The position numbers were made by a program, and so were the translations under genes. A stretch of DNA of 58,127 bases from Solirubrobacterales bacterium. Its GTDB lineage: Bacteria; Actinomycetota; Thermoleophilia; Solirubrobacterales; 70-9. The stretch covers positions 1 to 58,127 of the forward strand of contig JBAQZI010000147.1 in the NCBI GenBank assembly GCA_049790835.1, given 5' to 3'. Below are positions 1 through 52,421 of the stretch, one piece after another (the stretch's first letter is position 1; the number at the start of each line of letters is the position of its first letter). Below the pieces are notes generated by a model that saw nothing but the letters and a program-made list of their open reading frames with translations, was not told the DNA's origin and searched no databases.

Positions 1-554
1 GCTCCGCGCCCGTCGCCGATCCGCGGTCCCCAGCGGCCAACGATGCGGCGCTCGATCGTGACCGCGCGCTGGGCCTCGATCAGCTGCCCAACCACCGCGG
101 CCGCCAGCGCCTCCCAGGGCCAGACCCGGCGCCGGGGGCGGAAGCTCGGCATGCGGCGGATCAGCGGCCCGACCAGCGGGTCACGGCGAAAACGGCGGTG
201 AAACTCGCCGAGGTCGTAATCGAGCCCGAGCACGAAGCGCATCCGCTCGATCGCCAGCTCCAGCTCGGCCGTGCCCGCCGGAACAGGGTCGCGATCGCGG
301 GCGAGCGGCAGCGTCACCCGGCCCGGATCGACCGCCTCAGCCCGTACGACGACGCGGTCGGGGGCCGGCTGCCAGGCCCGCACCAGCACCGGGCTGGCCT
401 CGACGTGCAGCAGCCGCGTCGCCACCCCACCCTGAATCCAAAGCGTCCGATCCTCACTCCCCCGCGGCAGCGCATAGGGCGAAGCCGGCCGCACCTCGAC
501 CTCCAGCGGGCCCGTGGGCCGATATGTCGAGTCAGCCGCGACTTTTCGGCCCAT
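1..554 (-). CDS. HhH-GPD base-excision DNA glycosylase (AlkA / 3-methyladenine glycosylase II-like); 3' end lies outside the window
   Basis: Own minus-strand translation from ATG 554: MGRKVAADSTYRPTGPLEVEVRPASPYALPRG...FRPRRRVWPWEALAAAVVGQLIEAQRAVTIERRIVGRWG. The PWEAL-AV-GQ-I-A-I-RI stretch is typical of the HhH-GPD fold. The ORF is not in the track because it has no stop in the window. Alternative in-frame GTG start at 494. Confidence 0.6.
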   Translation of the reverse strand, partial: MGRKVAADSTYRPTGPLEVEVRPASPYALPRGSEDRTLWIQGGVATRLLHVEASPVLVRAWQPAPDRVVVRAEAVDPGRVTLPLARDRDPVPAGTAELELAIERMRFVLGLDYDLGEFHRRFRRDPLVGPLIRRMPSFRPRRRVWPWEALAAAVVGQLIEAQRAVTIERRIVGRWGPRIGDGRG

Positions 555-559
555 CGGCC
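509..559. repeat. 51-nt nested palindromic repeat, copy 1 (family GGCCGAYGGGCCG-N25-CGGCCCRTCGGCC)
   Basis: GGCCCGTGGGCCG ATATGTCGAGTCAGCCGCGACTTTT CGGCCCATCGGCC. About 40/51 nt match the reverse complement of the glpK copy, with the same length and architecture. It overlaps the ATG (554) of the AlkA-like ORF. Confidence 0.8.
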
Positions 560-564
560 GGCGG

Positions 565-879
565 TTAGCGGCCGAGGAGGTGGACGTCTACGAGGAAGGA
601 GCGGCTGGCGACGACGTTCTGGCGGTCGCGGCGACGGCTGAGACGCCGCGGCGCACGAGACTTCGAGCCGACCGCGCTGACCGCCCGCACGGCGGCGACG
701 GTCGCGGCGCCGGCCAAGACTCCACCGGCGGCGGCGATAGCGGCGCTGCGAACCTCGGCACGCAGCACCGGCAACGGCGGCTCCTCATAAGGCAGCGGCA
801 ACGCCCGCACCGGCTCAGCGTCCCGCGCCTCACCGTCTTCCTCAGCCACGATCTCACCGTCTAGGTCGAGGTCACTCAC
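565..879 (-). CDS. hypothetical small protein (acidic N-terminus, Ala/Gly-rich hydrophobic segment, basic C-terminus)
   Basis: 104-aa ORF with GTG start and good third-position GC. It ends 10 nt upstream of the AlkA-like start, so it is probably co-transcribed. No recognisable family. Confidence 0.4.
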   Translation of the reverse strand: MSDLDLDGEIVAEEDGEARDAEPVRALPLPYEEPPLPVLRAEVRSAAIAAAGGVLAGAATVAAVRAVSAVGSKSRAPRRLSRRRDRQNVVASRSFLVDVHLLGR

Positions 880-6552: not shown

Positions 6553-9152
6553 CGCTGCTCGATCCAGGTCAGGGTCGCGGGCAGCACCAGCATCACTCCG
6601 GCCAGGGCGACGGCGAGGTCGATGACCGTGACGAAGCCGAAGTCGCGCAGCATCTGGATGTCGCTGGCGATCAGCACCGCGAAGCCGGCGATCGCGGTCG
6701 CCCCGGAGGCGAGCACCGCCGCGCCGGTACGGCCGTAGGCCCGCCGCAGCGCCTCCTCCACCCCGCGCCCGCCGTGACGTTCCTGGTGGAAGCGGCCGGC
6801 GAGGATGACGCCGAACTCGGTCGCGATCGCGATCGTCAACGCCCCCAATGCCGCTGACATCGGGTTGAGCGGGATGCCGGTCAGCCAGATGATCAACGAG
6901 GCCCAGCCAGTCGCCAGCAGGGTCGGCACCAGCGGCACCAGCGCCCGGGCGAGCGAGCGGTAGACGGCGAGCAGCGCCAGGGCTACCGCCAGCAGGCCGG
7001 CAAGCGTCAGCCAGTAGCGGCTGGCGGCGAGATCGGTGGCCGATTCGGCCGCGATCACCGAGAGGCCTGCCAGCCGGACCTCGACTCCCGCCGGCGGCCC
7101 GGTCGGCGAGCCGGGCTCGCCGATCCCGGCGCGGACCCCGTCGATCAGCGCCTGCTGATTCTCCAGCGACTCGGTGCGGATGCCGAAGGAGAGCAGCGCC
7201 TCCTGCCCGACCTCGCCCGTCTCCGGGTCGAGCGGCGCCACCTGCCGCAGCGCGTACGGCGACAGCGCCGCCAGCGTCGCATCGATCTCGGCTCGGGTCA
7301 GCTCGCCGCCGCCGCGGGTGAGGAAATCCGAGAGCGCCGGGCCGGGGCAGACGCCGGCTTCGAGGCAGCTCGGGTTTTCGCCGCTGAAGCCGTTGTCGCG
7401 AAGCACGCGCTGCTTGAACTCGTCCATCCACTCGATCGTCGCCGGATCGGTCAGGTCGGGGGCTTGGACGCTGACGTCGAGCTGGCCGGAGACGCCGGTG
7501 GTGTCCTGGAGGTCGTTTAGGTCTTCGATGGCGGTCAGGTTTTGGGGGGCCAGCGAGCGGATGTCGGCGGCGGTCTCGATCTGGGTGCCTACGCCCCAGC
7601 CGACGATTGCCAGGGCCAGGCTGACTCCCAGTACAAGTTGCGGGCGGGAGATGGCTAGGGACAGGGGGCGTTCCAGCGCGCGGGTCCTGTCACGGGGGGA
7701 AGGGCCTGCGGGCTTCACCCCGTGTGAGCCCCGGGGGGAGGGTCCTGCGGGCGGGGGCTGCGCCTCCGTTCTCGGACCCTCCCCCCGGGTCTTCCAGGCG
7801 CGGAGCCTGCTTCCAGCAGAGCCGACGGGACGCAGGCTCAGGGCTGCGAAGCCGGCGGTGAGGGCCAAGAAGAAAGCGATGGTGAGGCCGATCAGGAGCA
7901 GGAGGCCGAAGCTGCGGACCATCGGGGTTGGGGAGAGCTGGAGGGCGAGGATGCCGGCGGCGGTGGCTAGGAACGCAGCGGCGATGGTGGGGCCGCCGTT
8001 GGTTGCCGCCGCTCGCGCAGCCTCGATGCCCTCGGCTCCCCCGGCGACCGCCTCGTCGAAGCGGGCTTGGAATTGGATCGCGTAGTCGACGGCGAGGCCG
8101 ATCAGGATTGGCAGGACGGCGATCGAGGCCATGGTCAGGGAGCCGCCGAAGAGGGCGAGGAGGCCGAAGACGAGGGCGGCGGCGGCGAGGGCGATGGCCA
8201 GGGGCAGCAGGCGCAGGCGGGAGCGGAAGACCAGGAGCAGGGTCGCGGCCATCACCACCAGGGCGACGGCGAAGAGGATCACGAGGGCGTCCTTCAGGGC
8301 CCGTTCGACCCCGTCGACGACGACAGGAGCGCCGGAGACGACGTAGCTGCCTCCCTGCAGCTCGAAGCAGGGAGCCGGGGCGCCTCGCTCGGCGCAGGCC
8401 TGGCGCGGGGTCGCGTCGTTGACCGCGGCTTCGATCAGGGCGAGAGCACGACGCCGCTCGCCGCTGCTGAGATCCGGCTTGAGCCTGACCAGGATCTGGG
8501 CCGAGTGGCTGTTGGGGAAGAGGTAGGCGAGCCGCGCCTTCGGCGTGCCACGGGCGCGGGCCAGATCGAAGACCACGGTGGCGACGAATTCTTCGTTGTC
8601 GAGGCTGGGGGCGCTGGTGATGCCGTAGCGGGTCGCCACCGAGAGCAGGAATTCGCGGAATCGCGCTGGCGGCACCCGCTGCGCCAGGCGCCGCAGCTGC
8701 GCTTCGATCTGGACCACCGACTCGTTGAGGAAGGTGGCCGGACCGACGAGGAACTCGACCGGGTCGAGCTCGGCCAGTTCCGCGCAGGGGCCGGGAATCG
8801 GCTTCGCTCCCTCGGGCACGTTGCCCGAGAGGCAGCCCTCCAGTCGCAGCAGCCGGAAGACGTCGGTGCTCAGGACCAACTCCTGCAGATCCCCCTTGAC
8901 GAGCACGACCACGGGTTCCTCGCCAAAGGACTCCCGCACCTGCTGGGTCGCCCCGTAGGTCGGGCTGTCGCGATCGACCAGGGTGCCGACGCCGGCATCG
9001 CTGGGGATCCGCGTCGCCCCGATCCCGGCGGCAAGTGCCAGCACGAAGCTGAGCGCCAGCACTACCCGGGCGTGCCCAGCGGCCCACGCCGCAACGCGGC
9101 CGAACCACTTCCCCAGGCTCAACTCAGTCCATCGAGAGCGGGCCGGTGACAT
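6549..9152 (-). CDS. MMPL/RND-superfamily (HAE3/HpnN-like) membrane transporter
   Basis: 867 aa with two TM bundles, each preceded by a large extracytoplasmic domain, and a typical MMPL N-terminus. The start (ATG 9152 or TTG 9122) overlaps or abuts the Mkl stop. Confidence 0.85.
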   Translation of the reverse strand: MSPARSRWTELSLGKWFGRVAAWAAGHARVVLALSFVLALAAGIGATRIPSDAGVGTLVDRDSPTYGATQQVRESFGEEPVVVLVKGDLQELVLSTDVFRLLRLEGCLSGNVPEGAKPIPGPCAELAELDPVEFLVGPATFLNESVVQIEAQLRRLAQRVPPARFREFLLSVATRYGITSAPSLDNEEFVATVVFDLARARGTPKARLAYLFPNSHSAQILVRLKPDLSSGERRRALALIEAAVNDATPRQACAERGAPAPCFELQGGSYVVSGAPVVVDGVERALKDALVILFAVALVVMAATLLLVFRSRLRLLPLAIALAAAALVFGLLALFGGSLTMASIAVLPILIGLAVDYAIQFQARFDEAVAGGAEGIEAARAAATNGGPTIAAAFLATAAGILALQLSPTPMVRSFGLLLLIGLTIAFFLALTAGFAALSLRPVGSAGSRLRAWKTRGEGPRTEAQPPPAGPSPRGSHGVKPAGPSPRDRTRALERPLSLAISRPQLVLGVSLALAIVGWGVGTQIETAADIRSLAPQNLTAIEDLNDLQDTTGVSGQLDVSVQAPDLTDPATIEWMDEFKQRVLRDNGFSGENPSCLEAGVCPGPALSDFLTRGGGELTRAEIDATLAALSPYALRQVAPLDPETGEVGQEALLSFGIRTESLENQQALIDGVRAGIGEPGSPTGPPAGVEVRLAGLSVIAAESATDLAASRYWLTLAGLLAVALALLAVYRSLARALVPLVPTLLATGWASLIIWLTGIPLNPMSAALGALTIAIATEFGVILAGRFHQERHGGRGVEEALRRAYGRTGAAVLASGATAIAGFAVLIASDIQMLRDFGFVTVIDLAVALAGVMLVLPATLTWIEQR
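7730..7789. repeat. 60-nt palindromic element lying in frame in the MMPL inter-domain linker
   Basis: Perfect 16-nt arms CCCGGGGGGAGGGTCC (7730-7745) and GGACCCTCCCCCCGGG (7774-7789). The left arm plus flank is duplicated directly at 7694-7713 (GGGGGGAAGGGCCTGCGGGC versus GGGGGGAGGGTCCTGCGGGC at 7733-7752). Confidence 0.75.
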
Positions 9153-16010: not shown

Positions 16011-16368
16011 GGGGAGGGAGGTCGGTACCCCTCCGCGTGAATTTGTCGCTCCGCGCCCATAGATGAGTAGTTCCGCGGTTCCTTATCCACGCATATCGTC
16101 GGAAACGAACCGCGGAACGCGGCCGGATGGTTCCGCGGTTCGCTATCCACGCATATGGTGGGAAAGGAACCGCGGAACTCGTTCGCTCGGCGCGCTGGCT
16201 GGGCCCCGCCAGATCCTTCAGAGGCGGTGCTAGTGAGCACCGCCGACTTCGACCGCGTTGCTCAATCCACCTTCCGCCCCTCTTGGCCGGGTGGTTCGTG
16301 GAACTGCTCGTCTAGCTAGGGCGCGGAGCGACAAATTCGAATGGAGGGCAACCAGACCCCTCCCTCGC
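16011..16368. mobile_element. MITE-like non-coding element (358 bp) with about 48-bp imperfect terminal inverted repeats
   Basis: Left end GGGGAGGGAGGTCGGTACCCCTCCGCGTGAATTTGTCGCTCCGCGCCC. Reverse complement of the right end GCGAGGGAGGGGTCTGGTTGCCCTCCATTCGAATTTGTCGCTCCGCGCCC. The terminal 20 nt are identical (16039-16058 versus 16319-16338). No ORF and lower GC inside. No clear target-site duplication. Confidence 0.6.
16070..16178. repeat. two tandem 49-nt hairpin units (period 60 nt) inside the MITE-like element
   Basis: GTTCCGCGGTTC-N25-GAACCGCGGAAC at 16070-16118 and 16130-16178. The loops share ATCCACGCATAT. A degenerate box GTTCGTGGAAC sits at 16293-16303. Confidence 0.85.
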
Positions 16369-32799: not shown

Positions 32800-32846
32800 T
32801 TGCGGCAGTCCTTTGGGCCGTATAGCGACCGAAAGGACTGCCGCAA
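32800..32846. promoter_or_regulatory. 47-nt hairpin TTGCGGCAGTCCTTT-N17-AAAGGACTGCCGCAA in the divergent intergenic region
   Basis: Perfect 15-nt arms (32800-32814 and 32832-32846), upstream of the cyclase GTG 32878. Confidence 0.6.
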
Positions 32847-35800: not shown

Positions 35801-35910
35801 CCCCCGAGGCGCTCGACGAGGGCGCGGCGGTTGCCGAGCGGACCGGGGCGATGACCAGCCTTGAGGGGATCGAGGCAACCCGGCAGCTGATCGGCGCCGG
35901 CGCCCGCTAG
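32878..35910 (+). CDS. class III adenylate/guanylate cyclase fused to a STAND/AAA ATPase and a TPR-like helical repeat domain
   Basis: VTVLFADVSGSM..FTGDGIMAVFGAP..GINSGEVVAG is the cyclase domain. Walker A EPGVGKSRL and LLIEDLHWID mark the NTPase. A helical repeat C-terminus of about 450 aa follows, with no LuxR HTH. Confidence 0.85.
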   Translation: MSPTTRDDAERKQVTVLFADVSGSMDLAEQQDPEEWRKIMQRFFSILADAVAKFEGTVDKFTGDGIMAVFGAPIAHEDHARRACYAALQMLDDVSDYAAELRRGPGLNFSTRIGINSGEVVAGAIGEKREGDYTAIGHTVGLAQRMEALAEPGKAYVTEHTAELAGGFLDLDDLGEFEIKGASRPVRVFELAGVGQPRSRLDLSRERGFSSFVGRAEEVAALKAALDDARAGKGGAVGLVAEPGVGKSRLCLEFTQRCRAEGLEVLEAQAQAHGTSIPFMPVLQMLRAFFGIGERDPEQLAREKIAGRSLLLDPSFAEDLPLLFDFLGVPDPERPVAQMSPDARQRALGRVVCRLTNAPSRRKTLVLLIEDLHWIDEGSNAMLSDLVDAIEGTNTLAVVNFRPEYTPPWQSSKAYRELPLEPLGREDTRDLLRDLAGEDPSLDGLDEAIHERSQGNPFFIEEIVRELDEAGYLEGERGAYRLARPIEGARVPVTVQAVLAARIDRLDPAAKQLLQVASVVGKEISGRALGMTAGLDRERIDPVLCELIEAGFLYEAELYPERVLAFRHPLTREVAYGTQLADGRSATHAAAARALIELEPDRHDELAALIAHHMEEGGETLEAARWSARAAYWTGSSRPGDAMRLWRRVMELSARLEQDEEATALAVMSRLLQLDFAWRLGMDGDEEARLTAEAEEIATRTGDLRSLALLRMATSARPGMPHQGETWLAAVAETNRLADESGDLHLRIAIRAAGSYAYLCVADFDGFERALDQVIELCGSDRRAGAGIVIGNPLAWAIMGKGVARRERGRLEEAEELFDAALRIASEEGDPEIESWTRSNQSLMLAMRGDTEAGIALARRNCELTERLGDVFSRSLALSNVGATQLLAGDHESALESLQESERVYRAAIDGGDEMECWRAALRAEALAGVGRAEEALDLAAWAADLARERGMLWSLPLTLRALALALDANDREGAPEALDEGAAVAERTGAMTSLEGIEATRQLIGAGAR

Positions 35911-36650
35911 CGCCGGCTGTCGCGCTGGCGCTCGAGCTCGGCCACCATCAGCTTGGTGTGCAGCGCCGCGATCAGGTCCTTGAGCGGCTGGGCTCCGGCT
36001 TCGAGCATCTCGACCACGCGCTCGGGCGAGACCTCGCCGGCCAGCCGGGTCATCACCATGTCGACCTCCTGGTGGACCAGGGCCTCGAGCGCCTCCTTGT
36101 AACGCAGGGTGTCGTAGACGGTGAAGCCGATCTGCTCGTCGTAGCCACCGGCGCGGAAGCGGCTGATCGCCTCGATGATGGTGACGTCGGAAGGCGAGTA
36201 GCCGCGGCTGTTCGGGGTCAGGATCTCCAGCTCGGCGAGGCGGTCGAGGGCCTCCTGGGGGACGCCGTAGCGCTTGCGTACCTCGCTGGCGCTGGTTCGC
36301 GAACGTTCGCCGGCCAACGCGCGGTCGAGGATGCGGTCCTCCAGCTCGAGCAGTGCCCTGGCTCGCTCCGGGTCCTCGTCGAGCACCGACTTGATCGCCT
36401 TCAGCGGCATGAAGCGCTCCTCCTGCAGGCGCTTGATCAGCTTGATCCGGTCGATGAACTCGGGTGGGTAATAGGCCATGTTGCGGCTGGTCTTGACCGG
36501 CTCCGGCAGCAGCCCCTCGCGCAGGTAATGCTTGATCGTCGGCGCCGGCACCCCAGACGCCTCGGCCAGCTCCCCCATCCGCAGCAGCTCCTGGGGTCGA
36601 TGGGCCGAAATGTCGACCCTGGCTGGACTTATCGGCCCGTCGGCGGTCAT
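35907..36650 (-). CDS. MerR-family transcriptional regulator (last gene of the acyl-CoA operon)
   Basis: LLRMGELAEASGVPAPTIKHYLREGLLP is a MerR HTH. The N-terminal 24 aa preceding it are largely encoded by a 51-nt palindromic repeat. ATGA overlap with the CoA-transferase stop. Confidence 0.8.
   Translation of the reverse strand: MTADGPISPARVDISAHRPQELLRMGELAEASGVPAPTIKHYLREGLLPEPVKTSRNMAYYPPEFIDRIKLIKRLQEERFMPLKAIKSVLDEDPERARALLELEDRILDRALAGERSRTSASEVRKRYGVPQEALDRLAELEILTPNSRGYSPSDVTIIEAISRFRAGGYDEQIGFTVYDTLRYKEALEALVHQEVDMVMTRLAGEVSPERVVEMLEAGAQPLKDLIAALHTKLMVAELERQRDSRR
36595..36645. repeat. 51-nt nested palindromic repeat, copy 2
   Basis: GGTCGATGGGCCG AAATGTCGACCCTGGCTGGACTTAT CGGCCCGTCGGCG. 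Same length, arms and inner ATGTCG..CGAC core as the copies at 509 and 51525. Confidence 0.8.
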
Positions 36651-37909
36651 GCGCGGAACTCGGTTGGCTTGGCGCCCGACTGGGGGCCGGCGGCGGCGCC
36701 GGAGGCGAGCATCGCTTCGATCTCCGCGGGCGCGTAGCCGGCCTCGCGCAGGACCTCCTCGGTGTGCTCGCCGAGGGCGGGCGCCGGACGGGTCGGGTCG
36801 GCGGGAGTGCGGCTGAGCTTGACCGGGGCGCCGAGCTGGCGCACCGTGCCCAGCTCCGGCTGCTCGATCTCCACCACCATCTCACGCGCCCGCACCAGCT
36901 CCGAGTCGAGTGCCTCGTCGAGGTCGAGAACCGGCTCGATGCAGCAGTCGTGCTCGTCGTTGAAGGCGAGCCACTCGGCGCGCGTGCGGGAGCGGAAGAC
37001 GTCGGCGACATCGCGCCAGGCATCGGAGCCCGGCGGCTCGAACTGCTTCTCGATCAGGTCCGGCCTCCCCACCCCATTACAGAGAGCAGCCCAGAACTTC
37101 GGCTCCAGGGCGCCACAGCTGACCCAGCCGTCGGCGACTTCATAAGGGAGGTAGCAGAGCAGCCCGCCGGCCAACTGCTGCTCGCCGCGCTTCGGCACCT
37201 CGCCGTCGCAGAAGTAGCGGCCAGCGACCATCGCCAGCCAGGAGAGGGCGCCGTCGGCCATCGAGACGTCGACCATCTGGCCCTCGCCGGAGCGGCGGCG
37301 CTCGTGCAGCGCCGCCATCACCCCGAAGGCTGCCATCAGGGCGCCGCCGCCGAGGTCGGCGATCTGGCCGGCCGACTGCACCGGCGGCCCGTCCTTGGCC
37401 CCGGTCAGCCCCAGCAGCCCGACCAGGCCGAGGTAGTTCATGTCGTGCCCGGCGCGCTGCGCGTAGGGACCGTCCTGGCCGTAGCCGGTGATCGCGCAGA
37501 AGACGATCGCCGGGTTCGCCTCGCGCATGCGCTCGTAGCCAACCCCAAGCCGGTCGAGGACGCCGGGGCGGAAGCCGTCGAGGACGACGTCGTGGCGCTC
37601 GACCAGGCGCAGCAGCGCCTCCCTCCCGGCCTCGCCCTTGAGGTCGAGGCGGACCGAGCGCTTGCCGCGGTTGAGCGCCAGGTAGAGCGAGGAGCGGGTG
37701 CCGAGCGCCTGCTGCTCGTCGCTGCCGTAGTACGGCGGCGCCCAGCGGATGTAGTCGCCCATGCCGGTGTCCTCGACCTTCAGTACCTCGGCGCCGAGGT
37801 CGGCCAAGAGCAGCGAGCAGAAGCCGCCCGGCAAGAGCCGGGTCAGGTCGAGGACCTTGACGTCGCTAAGCGGGAGGCTGGCCCCGGGCTGGGGTCGCTT
37901 GGCACTCAT
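36647..37909 (-). CDS. family III CoA-transferase (CaiB/BaiF/alpha-methylacyl-CoA racemase family)
   Basis: LSDVKVLDLTRLLPGGFCSLLLADLGAEVLKVE and GHDMNY. Internal ATG 37909 overlaps the OsmC stop (ATGA). Confidence 0.85.
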   Translation of the reverse strand: MSAKRPQPGASLPLSDVKVLDLTRLLPGGFCSLLLADLGAEVLKVEDTGMGDYIRWAPPYYGSDEQQALGTRSSLYLALNRGKRSVRLDLKGEAGREALLRLVERHDVVLDGFRPGVLDRLGVGYERMREANPAIVFCAITGYGQDGPYAQRAGHDMNYLGLVGLLGLTGAKDGPPVQSAGQIADLGGGALMAAFGVMAALHERRRSGEGQMVDVSMADGALSWLAMVAGRYFCDGEVPKRGEQQLAGGLLCYLPYEVADGWVSCGALEPKFWAALCNGVGRPDLIEKQFEPPGSDAWRDVADVFRSRTRAEWLAFNDEHDCCIEPVLDLDEALDSELVRAREMVVEIEQPELGTVRQLGAPVKLSRTPADPTRPAPALGEHTEEVLREAGYAPAEIEAMLASGAAAGPQSGAKPTEFRA

Positions 37910-38325
37910 TGGGGCTCGACCGCCACCGGGAAATCCACTGACCTGGCGATGAAGCAACGCTCGTGAGCGCCGTGGTGGAACGCCTCGATCGCCTCCGGGG
38001 CGGGGGGATCCCCCGCCCAGCGGACACGCGGCCGCAGCGTCGCCGCGGTGAACTTCTTGCCGTCGAGCACTCCATCGGCGTCGTCTTCATAAGAGGCGAC
38101 CTCGAAGCCCTTTTTCCTCGCAAGCGCCAGGAACCAAAGCATGTGGCAGCTGGCGAGGGCGCCGATCAGCAGCGCCTCCGGATTCGACTTCGAGTCGTCG
38201 CCGCCGAACTCGATCGCCGACGAGCTGGGCAGCGACTGGGCGCCGAGGAGAACGTCGTGGGCGCGAACGTCCTCCCCCTCGCCGCCATTCCAGGAGACAC
38301 CGGCGCGGTGGATCGACGTCGCCAT
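37906..38325 (-). CDS. OsmC/Ohr-family peroxiredoxin-like protein
   Basis: NPEALLIGALASCHML...AHERCFIARS (two conserved Cys). Confidence 0.75.
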   Translation of the reverse strand: MATSIHRAGVSWNGGEGEDVRAHDVLLGAQSLPSSSAIEFGGDDSKSNPEALLIGALASCHMLWFLALARKKGFEVASYEDDADGVLDGKKFTAATLRPRVRWAGDPPAPEAIEAFHHGAHERCFIARSVDFPVAVEPQ

Positions 38326-41662: not shown

Positions 41663-41721
41663 CGAGCGGCACCATAGCCGACTTTCGCTGAAAGTAGGAA
41701 GTGCTACTGTCCACGCCGCAT

Positions 41722-41771
41722 GGCGTGTCTGACTTTAGGCCCCCTATATGGCCGGAAAAGTCAGACACGCC
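41722..41771. promoter_or_regulatory. perfect 15-nt inverted repeat GGCGTGTCTGACTTT-N20-AAAGTCAGACACGCC between the divergent crotonase and ACAD genes
   Basis: Seen directly. The left arm also pairs with an upstream CACGCC (41712-41717). A second palindrome, GACTTTCGCTGAAAGT, lies at 41680-41695. Confidence 0.7.
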
Positions 41772-41810
41772 TTGATTGGGACACCGACCCGCGAACGAGG
41801 AGAGACACCA

Positions 41811-48332: not shown

Positions 48333-48339
48333 CCACCCC

Positions 48340-48389
48340 GCCGATGGGGCCTCAAACGTCCACGATTTGGACGTTTGAGGCCCATCGGC
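48340..48389. terminator. 50-nt bidirectional hairpin between convergent genes; its outer arms are related to the 51-nt repeat family
   Basis: GCCGATGGGGCCTCAAACGTCCA-cgatt-TGGACGTTTGAGGCCCATCGGC. The stem is about 22 bp with one bulge. It lies 8 nt after stop 48332 and 7 nt before stop 48396. Confidence 0.75.
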
Positions 48390-48395
48390 CTACGG

Positions 48396-50906: not shown

Positions 50907-52421
50907 CTACGCCGCAGGCCGTGCCCAGTTACGCGAGCGCTCCAGGGCGCGGCGCCAGTCGGCCAGCAGGCCCTCGCGCTCATCGGCGCCCATCCGTGGC
51001 TCATACCGCGTCGCCTCGCGCCACATCTCCCCCACCTGCTCGCGGGTCCAGCAGCCGGTCGCGATCCCGGCCAGGTAGGCGGCGCCCAGCGCGGTCGTCT
51101 CGGCGATCTCCGGCACCACCACGACGGCGTCGAGCACGTCGGCCTGGAATTGCATCAGCCAGCGGTTGGCGACGGCGGCGCCGTCGGCCTTCAGGACGTC
51201 CAGCCGCGCCCCGGCCGCGGCCTCCTGGGCGCGCACCGCGTCGACGGTCTCATACGCGATCGCCTCCAGCGCCGCCCGGGCCAGGTGGGCGCGGCCGCTG
51301 CCGCGGGTGAGGCCGAGGATCGTGCCGCGCGCGTAGGGATCCCAGTGCGGGGAGCCGAGACCAGTCAGCGCGGGGACGAAGTAGACGCCGTCGTTGGAAT
51401 CCAGCGAGGCGGCCAGCGCCTCCGTCTCCCCCGCCTCGTCGACGATCCCGAGCCCGTCGCGCAACCACTGCACGGCGGCGCCGGTGACGAAGATCGACGC
51501 CTCGAGCGCGTAGGTCACCTCCGCGGCCGACGGGCCGGAATGTCGAGCCTGAAGCGACATATCGGCCCGTCGGCCGGTGGTTGGGAGGCCCCAGGCGACG
51601 GTGGCTAGGAGGCCGTCGGGGGGGCGCGGGGCCTGGGCGCCGGTGTTGAGGAGGACGAAGCTGCCGGTGCCGTAGGTGTTCTTGGCCATGCCGGGGCTGT
51701 GACAGGCCTGGCCGAAGAGGGCGGCCTGCTGGTCGCCGGCGATTCCCGCCACCGGCACCTCGCCGCCGAACTCGCTCGTCGTCCCGTAGACATGCGCCGA
51801 GGGCAGCGGCTCCGGCAGCCGCGCCGGGTCGACTCCGAGCAGCTCGCACAGCTCCGGGTCCCACTCGAGCCGGCGGATGTCGAACAGCATCGTCCGCGAG
51901 GCGTTGGAGTAGTCGGTGACGTGACGGCCGGTCAGCTTGAAGAGCAGCCAGGCGTCGATCGTGCCGAAGACCGCCCGCTCCGCGCCCTCGGCGTTGCCCA
52001 GCAGCCACTCGATCTTGGTCGCCGAGAAGTAGGGGTCGATGGTGAGGCCGGTCCGCTCGCGCACCAGCGCCTCCTGCCCGGCCGCCCGCAGCTCGTCGCA
52101 GCGCTCGGCGGTGCGACGGTCCTGCCAGACCAGGGCGCGGTGGACCGGCTCGCCCGTCGCCCGGTCCCAGGCGACCACGGTCTCGCGCTGGTTGGTGATC
52201 CCGATCCCGTCGAGCTCGCCGCCCTCGATGCCGGCGGCGGCGATCGCCGCGGCCGCGACCCGCCGCGTCACCTCCCAGATTTCGGCGGCGTCGTGCTCGA
52301 CCCAGCCCGGCCGCGGGAAATGCTGCTCGAACTCGGCGTAGGCGCGACCGGCGACCCGCGCCTCGCCATCGAAGACGAGGCAGGTGGTGCCGGTGGTCCC
52401 CTGGTCGATCGCGAGGATCAC
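50907..52421 (-). CDS. glpK: glycerol kinase (carries a 17-aa in-frame insertion)
   Basis: ILAIDQGTTGT, GITNQRET, IAGDQQAALFGQ and MAKNTYGTG. Collinear with E. coli GlpK except for GRRADMSLQARHSGPSA between AWGLPTT and AEVTYALE. Confidence 0.95.
   Translation of the reverse strand: MILAIDQGTTGTTCLVFDGEARVAGRAYAEFEQHFPRPGWVEHDAAEIWEVTRRVAAAAIAAAGIEGGELDGIGITNQRETVVAWDRATGEPVHRALVWQDRRTAERCDELRAAGQEALVRERTGLTIDPYFSATKIEWLLGNAEGAERAVFGTIDAWLLFKLTGRHVTDYSNASRTMLFDIRRLEWDPELCELLGVDPARLPEPLPSAHVYGTTSEFGGEVPVAGIAGDQQAALFGQACHSPGMAKNTYGTGSFVLLNTGAQAPRPPDGLLATVAWGLPTTGRRADMSLQARHSGPSAAEVTYALEASIFVTGAAVQWLRDGLGIVDEAGETEALAASLDSNDGVYFVPALTGLGSPHWDPYARGTILGLTRGSGRAHLARAALEAIAYETVDAVRAQEAAAGARLDVLKADGAAVANRWLMQFQADVLDAVVVVPEIAETTALGAAYLAGIATGCWTREQVGEMWREATRYEPRMGADEREGLLADWRRALERSRNWARPAA
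51525..51575. repeat. 51-nt nested palindromic repeat, copy 3, in frame inside glpK
   Basis: GGCCGACGGGCCG GAATGTCGAGCCTGAAGCGACATAT CGGCCCGTCGGCC. It has perfect 13-nt outer arms and inner 6-nt arms ATGTCG/CGACAT. It starts on a codon boundary and spans exactly 17 codons. Confidence 0.9.

Follow-up and report, generated by a model that had tools for sequence, protein, structure and literature searches.

Nested palindromic elements of Solirubrobacterales, with a copy residing in frame within the glycerol kinase gene

The stretch of DNA analysed here, called the window below, comprises positions 1 to 58,127 of contig JBAQZI010000147.1 of a Solirubrobacterales bacterium (assembly GCA_049790835.1), with a G+C content of 69.4%. 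Its minus strand carries glpK (50907..52421), an intact gene for a glycerol kinase of 504 aa with the FGGY_N and FGGY_C domains, which matches the solved glycerol kinases at E = 1e-158; an exact-protein look-up of this GlpK gave no identical protein on record. Within the gene lies a nested palindrome of 51 nt (51525-51575, minus), GGCCGACGGGCCG-GAATGTCGAGCCTGAAGCGACATAT-CGGCCCGTCGGCC. Its outer arms of 13 nt are perfect (GGCCGACGGGCCG / CGGCCCGTCGGCC) and its inner arms of 6 nt read ATGTCG/CGACAT. The palindrome starts exactly at the boundary of codon 283 and occupies codons 283-299, which encode GRRADMSLQARHSGPSA. Sequence, position, arms and codon boundary are just as quoted in a preliminary description of the window. 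As single-stranded RNA the copy folds at -38.7 to -39.8 kcal/mol (z ~ -7.2), and 0 of 200 shuffled sequences are as stable. It is recognised with 61.5 bits (E = 9e-12) by a covariance model, which we built from 111 copies of the family to which it belongs.

The stretch differing from orthologues with an empty site is longer than the hairpin itself. It spans 51522..51584 (minus) and consists of CCAACCACC, encoding PTT, followed by the hairpin and GCG, encoding A. These 63 nt substitute for the 6 nt GAGGAC (ED) of the empty alleles, so that the net difference is 57 nt, or 19 codons. What was inserted thus exceeds the 51-nt hairpin in length. On translation, the insert would give rise to peptides containing AWGLPTTGRR or GPSAAEVTYALE. 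The solved glycerol kinases have no counterpart of the 17 residues, and their flanking strands are joined by two residues only. In the enzyme of Thermococcus kodakarensis (2zf5) the segment DNLLTTIAWGL extends up to residue 287 and RVSYALEG starts from residue 290; therefore, the insert site is a two-residue turn between conserved segments. The earlier idea that removal of 17 codons restores the canonical GlpK needs correction, as 19 codons have to be counted against the closest empty orthologues. The empty glpK site contains a small palindrome, CTCGAG. The CAACCRCC head of the insert is similar to the TAACCGCC / TGAACCGCC flank of intergenic copies.

For comparison we used 120 GlpK homologues of 85-92% identity from uncultured Solirubrobacterales together with the GlpK of the window (n = 121). 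The site is empty in 83 of these alleles, filled in 35 and occupied by short remnants in three. Empty alleles read AWGL-ED-EVAYALE and encode proteins of 485-487 aa; the alignment of orthologues, proposed as a check in the preliminary description, thus confirms that these close relatives are free of the 17-aa segment. The position of the insert is identical in all filled alleles, the frame is intact in 35/35 of them, and they have common junctions, CTCC-CAACCRCC ... GCGGAGGTG. All filled copies examined at the DNA level form nested palindromes, and their arms are identical. The peptides encoded between the arms vary (DMSLQARHS, ENPRTSWEI, SNVHMPDVS, DKLTPGQLS), and the inner peptide of the insert is, as judged from these sequences, unconstrained. 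Both filled and empty alleles of glpK are under purifying selection, with dN/dS of 0.10-0.28 at synonymous divergence (dS) of 0.25-0.54. The remnants encode PTAG-GPSA or PAA-GPSA and demonstrate a route of copy loss from coding sequence without regaining the ancestral ED. In L006 (glpK at 832-2307), P0033 and P0069 they resemble in-frame deletions of 39 nt between GGCC microhomologies of both arms. Decaying or internally deleted glpK copies are found in L007, L006, P0024 and P0033.

The source of the window is probably a metagenome-assembled genome (MAG), and nothing else favours an artefact of assembly or binning. Filled alleles occur in dozens of independent JGI, ENA and NCBI assemblies, including contigs of 2.5 Mb, with conserved synteny; an assembly artefact is therefore excluded. 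A pseudogene is contradicted by the intact frames and the low dN/dS, and the chance that either accounts for the insert is vanishingly small.

The palindrome is dispersed far beyond glpK. The family was scanned for with the pattern CCGAYGGGCC-N25-29-GGCCCRTCGG, taking one genome per species, and at least 119 loci were obtained. Among the matches listed, nearly all are in MAGs of Solirubrobacterales/Thermoleophilia of ~2.5-3 Mb. The few matches in Streptomyces and other taxa, which differ in spacing or have an interior of G and C alone, appear to be hairpins formed by chance. The arms are 27 nt apart in 117 of the 138 pattern matches listed and 26 or 28 nt apart in a handful, the remaining spacings coming nearly all from the chance matches in other taxa or from nested copies. 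With well over 100 copies in Solirubrobacterales genomes, the dispersed element suspected in the preliminary description, similar to repetitive extragenic palindromes (REPs) or miniature transposable elements with inverted repeats (MITEs), is a real family. The hairpin is 51 nt long in almost all copies, the intergenic ones included, so that the multiple-of-three length, for which the preliminary description proposed a test, belongs to the family at large. Our literature search on palindromic repeats in Solirubrobacterales found nothing.

The alignment of the 111 copies gives an invariant, GC-rich outer stem, (G/C)GCCGAYGGGCC, inside which an A/T-rich collar is followed by a hypervariable inner stem of 8-11 bp and a loop of 5-7 nt. 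The motif C(G/A)TC is invariant and paired with GA(C/T)G in the outer stem; GTAG is absent. Flanking bases extend the hairpin to a unit of ~60 nt, and the element is ~67% GC. In the inner stem the sequence is free and the pairing is kept: pair 18:34 is CG in 52 and GC in 47 copies, and pair 19:33 is UA in 33, GC in 29 and CG in 28. Covariation in the inner stem scores 0.336; shuffles give 0.134, with 0/500 scoring as high, and sliding the partners gives no more than 0.093. The flanks of the copies are C-rich or G-rich with an A-rich patch. An orientation of the element from a one-sided GGNGGTT tail was rejected, the analysis being circular and the signal weak; what holds of the flank signal is an A-rich patch followed by C-rich flanks and the preferred stop-codon registers.

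We analysed the context of 99 copies with sufficient flank. Twenty-seven of them are in frame within long open reading frames (ORFs), with the coding pattern of third-position G+C in the same frame on both sides. The three phases are used 12/6/9 times without bias (p = 0.37), and the encoded peptides are of the types GRRA...GPSA, RPTG...RPVG and ADGP...ARRP. A Pfam domain continues across the insert in another genome's glpK, in lipB (two genomes), in pheT, in dnaE (PHP domain), in a Mur ligase (C-domain; two genomes) and in a GT87 glycosyltransferase. The dxs insert falls between two domains, and the ORFs of dxs and bioD read through. The dethiobiotin synthase gene bioD is filled in L001 (1865-1915) and L004 (1361-1411) and empty in L005 and L007; its in-frame copy encodes PPADGP...AHRP with a net gain of 17 aa (51 nt). 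Tolerated residence in frame, one half of what the preliminary description had offered, is thus borne out by these genes, while its other half, selection for such residence, is not: ~81% of the sampled sequence is coding-like versus 27% of the copies being in coding sequence, an about three-fold depletion (p ~1e-30). In-frame residence is therefore tolerated, not favoured.

An 817-aa ORF of L013 (4331-6781, minus), for which no Pfam match was found, has two in-frame copies (residues 190-206 and 406-422). Its apparent orthologues in L026 and L068 have a copy at the DLDRRRA...GPSAGWWW site, and the inner stems differ.

The non-coding copies lie between convergent genes in 18 cases, between co-directional genes in a different phase in 25 and between divergent genes in 8. 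At 40 of the 69 incoming gene ends, the distance from the end of the stop codon to the hairpin is 1-13 nt. This placement, the enrichment between convergent and co-directional genes and the high stability of the hairpins would fit a host device, that is factor-independent terminators or 3' stabilisers of mRNA after stop codons, with the coding copies being accidental; REPs elsewhere are similarly placed and sometimes supply stop codons (PMC3733652). However, no T-run follows the hairpins, which are therefore not canonical intrinsic terminators; 27% of the copies are inside essential genes, where termination would harm; orthologous sites are empty in related genomes; and the nested self-insertion described below is the behaviour of a mobile element. 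We consider a host device quite unlikely as the explanation of the family. A secondary role of this kind would be compatible with mobility.

In glpK the inner arms are ATGTCG/CGACAT in the window and L007, AAGTTGAC/GTCAACTT in L003, CCCACG/CGTGGG in L001 and AACGTCC/GGACGTT in L002 and L004. When orthologous glpK copies are compared over their inner 27 nt, identity has a bimodal distribution. Pairs of the same type are 0.63-0.81 identical, close to the neutral expectation, while pairs of different types are only 0.19-0.48 identical versus 0.62-0.78 expected from dS. Such identity is far under the synonymous expectation; the inner stem was therefore replaced and did not drift gradually. The inner type of each glpK copy agrees with the other copies of its own genome. 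The same is true for bioD, where the inner stems of L001 and L004 differ and each matches the glpK copy of its own genome. Over the family, identity in the inner region is 0.61 within genomes versus 0.44 between them, the within-genome mean being reached in 0/2000 permutations, and pairs at least 70% identical make up 42% within genomes and 7% between. The same pattern is also found at the Mur ligase, lipB and adh/F420 sites and in the 817-aa ORF of L013, L026 and L068.

These data bear directly on a single ancient insertion into glpK, after which the hairpin would have been kept by host selection for DNA or RNA structure (for instance one that pauses translation, stabilises the mRNA or binds a protein) with compensatory substitutions of the inner stem in place. 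One insertion would account for the identical junctions of all filled alleles and for the association of filled status being strongest at the alignment columns next to the insert (303 and 278). The graded series ATGTCG, AAGTTG..CAACAT, AAGTTGAC among peptides and DNA and the strong covariation across the family speak for it as well. Nevertheless, different-type pairs are at random-level identity, for which point mutation is far too slow, and the inner type goes with the remaining copies in the genome rather than with the tree of glpK. Furthermore, 83 close relatives live without the insert, some copies are decaying or internally deleted, and the element also resides in unrelated genes and intergenic DNA. 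We thus regard a single ancient insertion maintained by the host as very improbable.

Independent strikes by different subfamilies at one nucleotide position of glpK (and of bioD, lipB and the Mur ligase), with no replacement in place, would also produce different inner stems at one site. In the neighbour-joining tree of GlpK, which is poorly resolved, filled and empty alleles are interspersed, and the glpK closest in dS to that of the window is the empty allele of L005 (0.247). Site-specific insertion at hairpin apexes is demonstrated by the nested copies, the CTCGAG of the empty site could mark a hot spot, and if the CAACCRCC head is part of the element the shared junctions need no shared ancestry. 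However, many independent strikes at one base in at least five genes would be required, and different inner types have in common flanks replaced at both junctions. The association of filled status with the neighbouring columns, which suggests one origin plus recombination and is not decisive, fits a hot spot less well than one origin, and the poor resolution of the tree makes the interspersion weak evidence. Hence, a hot spot of repeated insertion appears unlikely.

Five loci have a complete copy in the loop of another one: L036:4726-4830, L047:1540-1644 (lipB), L057:1799-1903 (PHP domain of dnaE), L069:99-203 and L104:7681-7785. The inner copy always adds 60 nt and splits the interior 21/21 nt. 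These doubly nested hairpins fold at about -85 to -104 kcal/mol, and in lipB and dnaE ~37 residues are added in frame. The nested geometry suggests that the unit inserted has 60 nt and that its target is the hairpin apex. IS1397 and ISKpn1 are autonomous insertion sequences targeting REP loops. The insertion into the loop of a palindrome is alike, but the inserting unit here is another 60-nt copy of the same palindrome. The idea of a landing pad, with the outer arms as a pre-existing target and only the inner hairpin mobile, was rejected, as no arm pair at 0-24 nt spacing was found in 1.1 Mb.

Taken as a whole, we suggest that the glpK element is likely a copy of a family of non-autonomous mobile palindromes, resembling REPs and Rickettsia palindromic elements (RPEs) and found almost only in Solirubrobacterales, which is tolerated in the gene and renewed in place. 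The insertion at the two-residue beta-turn would have preserved the reading frame, and the insert would be transcribed and translated as a loop extension of 17-19 residues. The enzyme would tolerate this extension, and the inserted peptide would have no function of its own. Most copies would be kept just 3' of stop codons and about a quarter in frame at permissive protein sites. New copies would enter old ones exactly at the loop apex, and the nested structure would then collapse, by deletion or slippage between the directly repeated arms, so that one 51-nt element carrying the inner stem of the newcomer is left. Alternatively, copies would convert one another, with an equal result. With such renewal in place, an orthologous site would keep its outer arms and frame and gain the inner stem prevailing in the genome.

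A bolder version is a self-homing 60-nt palindrome, where an unknown activity other than the REP-associated tyrosine transposase (RAYT) would drive precise insertion at hairpin apexes, those of its own copies among them, followed by collapse and concerted evolution inside essential genes. We put it forward tentatively, as a possible but doubtful extension of renewal in place. If it is true, a 9-residue stretch of the glpK, dnaE and pheT products is continually rewritten with frame and position kept. This would be a mechanism of palindrome survival in coding sequence and of protein loop diversity undescribed for REPs and RPEs.

Several points weigh against renewal in place of a mobile, tolerated element. 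A regular-expression search for RAYT/Y1 motifs over the 1.1 Mb, with ~8 kb per genome, gave no match, and among the recurrent neighbour genes of copies, clustered and assigned to Pfam over the same ~8 kb per genome, no transposase was found; both tests are crude. The recurrent neighbour families (SDR, ECH, ACAD, ABC, MFS) are ordinary metabolic paralogues. When filled and empty sites are compared for glpK, bioD and the adh/F420 spacer, no target-site duplication is visible, 6-15 nt of flank being replaced, and no clean junction could be defined; the net gain is 57 nt for glpK, 51 nt for bioD and 60 nt for nested copies. No collapsed intermediate of the nested form was directly observed. The resolution of the GlpK tree is too low for counting gains and losses. 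Third-codon positions of the arms are modestly more conserved than those of the rest of glpK (0.89 versus 0.70-0.75 in a small sample). The AlphaFold2 model of the filled GlpK, made from a shallow alignment of 69 close homologues, has a mean predicted local distance difference test score (pLDDT) of 42, too poor for placing the loop in three dimensions; strands are predicted at 274-278 and 303-307 with coil between. Finally, the insert is presumably translated within GlpK, the integrity of the ORF being the ground for this.

Among known elements, RPEs are the nearest in behaviour, together with the intragenic GTAG/CGTC REPs listed by Di Nocera et al. (PMC3733652). In the summaries of Ogata et al. 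(2000) given in PMC10969869 and PMC3733652, RPEs are AT-rich, about 100-150 bp long, encode conserved peptides and are hosted by the reduced genomes of obligate intracellular Alphaproteobacteria, RPE-4 and RPE-6 being short CGTC REPs. Compared with these accounts, both kinds are dispersed palindromes, and a large share of their copies are in-frame insertions into housekeeping genes unrelated to one another, where the extra peptide is apparently tolerated; both vary in presence among related genomes, and no dedicated transposase is known in either. Unlike RPEs as summarised there, the Solirubrobacterales element is 51-60 nt long and ~67% GC, resides in soil-metagenome Actinomycetota and encodes a hypervariable inner peptide. 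It works like an RPE, but size, host and peptide set it apart from the RPE families, and similarity in sequence is not expected. The preliminary description had drawn this parallel, and the intact ORFs with in-frame copies in unrelated genes agree with it.

REPs and REPINs (PMC3116915, PMC3337134, PMC3733652) are likewise short GC-rich palindromes in tens to hundreds of copies, mostly at most 20 bp from the 3' end of an ORF, where neighbouring genes are co-directional or convergent, sometimes supplying or abutting stop codons. They too form genome-specific sequence populations, are vertically inherited at orthologous positions, and some are inside genes, including those of replication and repair. 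In contrast, the element described here has no unpaired GTAG tag, its CGTC/CATC is paired in the outer stem, it is 51 nt long versus the usual 20-40 bp, and its intragenic fraction (~27%) is far above that of classical REPs. Its arms are not palindromic REPs themselves; it is one continuous 22-bp stem with a loop of 5-7 nt, and not two inverted REPs around a spacer as in REPINs. CGTC REPs (Di Nocera, De Gregorio and Rocco 2013, PMC3733652) share with it a stem of 8-11 bp starting from A/T pairs, a loop of 5-7 nt, the CGTC motif flanking the stem, common intragenic copies and the lack of a known transposase. In those REPs, however, the tag is unpaired and abuts the stem, and there are a CCA tail and head-to-head dimers; here CGTC pairs with GACG in the opposite arm, and 5-6 nt separate it from the inner stem. 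None of these families is reported from Actinobacteria in that paper (PMC3733652).

The enterobacterial MITEs ERIC and RU-1/2/3 (Delihas 2007, PMC2759123) are also small non-autonomous repeats with open frames and occasional in-frame gene fusions, but they differ in being 100-170 bp long, in having both terminal inverted repeats and target duplications, and in seldom residing within genes. The outer arms of the Solirubrobacterales element could count as terminal inverted repeats, and no duplication is visible at the glpK, bioD and adh/F420 sites. In the ~8-kb blocks covered per genome, no autonomous IS with matching ends was seen. The comparison with mycobacterial interspersed repetitive units (MIRUs), also made in the preliminary description, is weak because tandem arrays are absent: the copies are single or nested, never tandem, and the ATGA stop/start overlap is found only at 36595-36645.

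We are thus dealing with a new family of an already known kind of element. What distinguishes it is the high intragenic fraction, the exact +60-nt nesting and the concerted, discrete turnover of inner stems at fixed positions of essential genes. It extends the range of selfish palindromes inside proteins from Rickettsia and a few Proteobacteria and Verrucomicrobia to high-GC soil-metagenome Actinomycetota with small genomes. The intragenic fraction of about a quarter rivals that of Rickettsia, with dnaE, pheT, dxs, lipB, bioD and glpK among the hosts. Filled, empty, remnant and nested states across related MAGs make a good natural experiment on REP-like elements lacking a transposase, covering their movement, their persistence in coding sequence and the protein sites that accept 17-37 extra residues. 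In practice, the inserts inflate or split protein alignments and can mislead gene callers and homology-based annotation in Solirubrobacterales.

Besides the glpK copy, the window contains three further copies of the family. The pattern of the preliminary description matches at 509-559, 36595-36645 and 51525-51575, with 0 matches expected from 100 shuffles, and the covariance-model scan finds exactly four copies in the window (509-559, 36595-36645, 48339-48390 and 51525-51575) and none in L005 and L006. The number of three additional copies given earlier is thus right, while the diverged one spans 48339-48390, with 52 nt and a bulge, rather than 48340-48389. None of the four window copies is followed by a T-run on either strand, and no Rfam family matches anywhere in the window.

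The copy at 509..559, of the same inner-stem type as that in glpK, is intergenic between minus-strand ORFs. It lies 5 nt past the stop codon of the ORF 565..879 and just upstream of a minus-strand ORF which is open in the composition-favoured frame across 1-508, the end of the window. The copy at 36595..36645, again of the glpK type, lies 1 nt after the TGA of a CoA-transferase gene (36647..37957, minus) and is within a possible N-terminal extension of a MerR-family ORF (35907..36650, minus), in which the helix-turn-helix starts from residue 24. An ATG at 36650-36648, which shares bases with the TGA of the CoA-transferase gene (ATGA), opens a frame that runs through the copy into the MerR-family gene; the ATGACCGCCGACGGGCC junction of this copy is also found in L027 and L099. 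The copy may be either a translated N-terminal extension or the 5' leader of the MerR-family gene.

The bulged copy at 48339..48390 is of another inner-stem type (AAACGTCCA/TGGACGTTT) and lies between convergent genes, 6 nt past the stop of an F420H2-quinone reductase gene; on the other side, the stop of a gene of the SDR family is 5 nt away. L001 and L002 have a copy at this site, which is empty in L005. In L004 (14131-14228) the same convergent adh/F420H2-reductase spacer is occupied by a different, longer palindrome with arms of ~20 bp (AACCCGCCCCCGATAGGGG...CCCCTATCGGGGGCGGGTT) ~60 nt apart. The site is repeatedly taken by hairpin elements.

An intergenic region of the window (16069-16179) contains two tandem nested palindromes of 50 nt, 11 nt apart, whose outer arms (GTTCCGCGGTTC...GAACCGCGGAAC) are not those of the family. 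Their inner hairpin (ATCCACG-CATAT-CGTSGGAAA) is similar to the CCCACG/CGTGGG inner type of the 51-nt family. These palindromes, possibly a sister family or the operators of a regulator, have no copies in the 126 loci analysed. Other strong hairpins of the window, at 7727-7792, 32800-32846 and 41719-41774, have arms of 18-21 nt that are 90-95% complementary and are unrelated.

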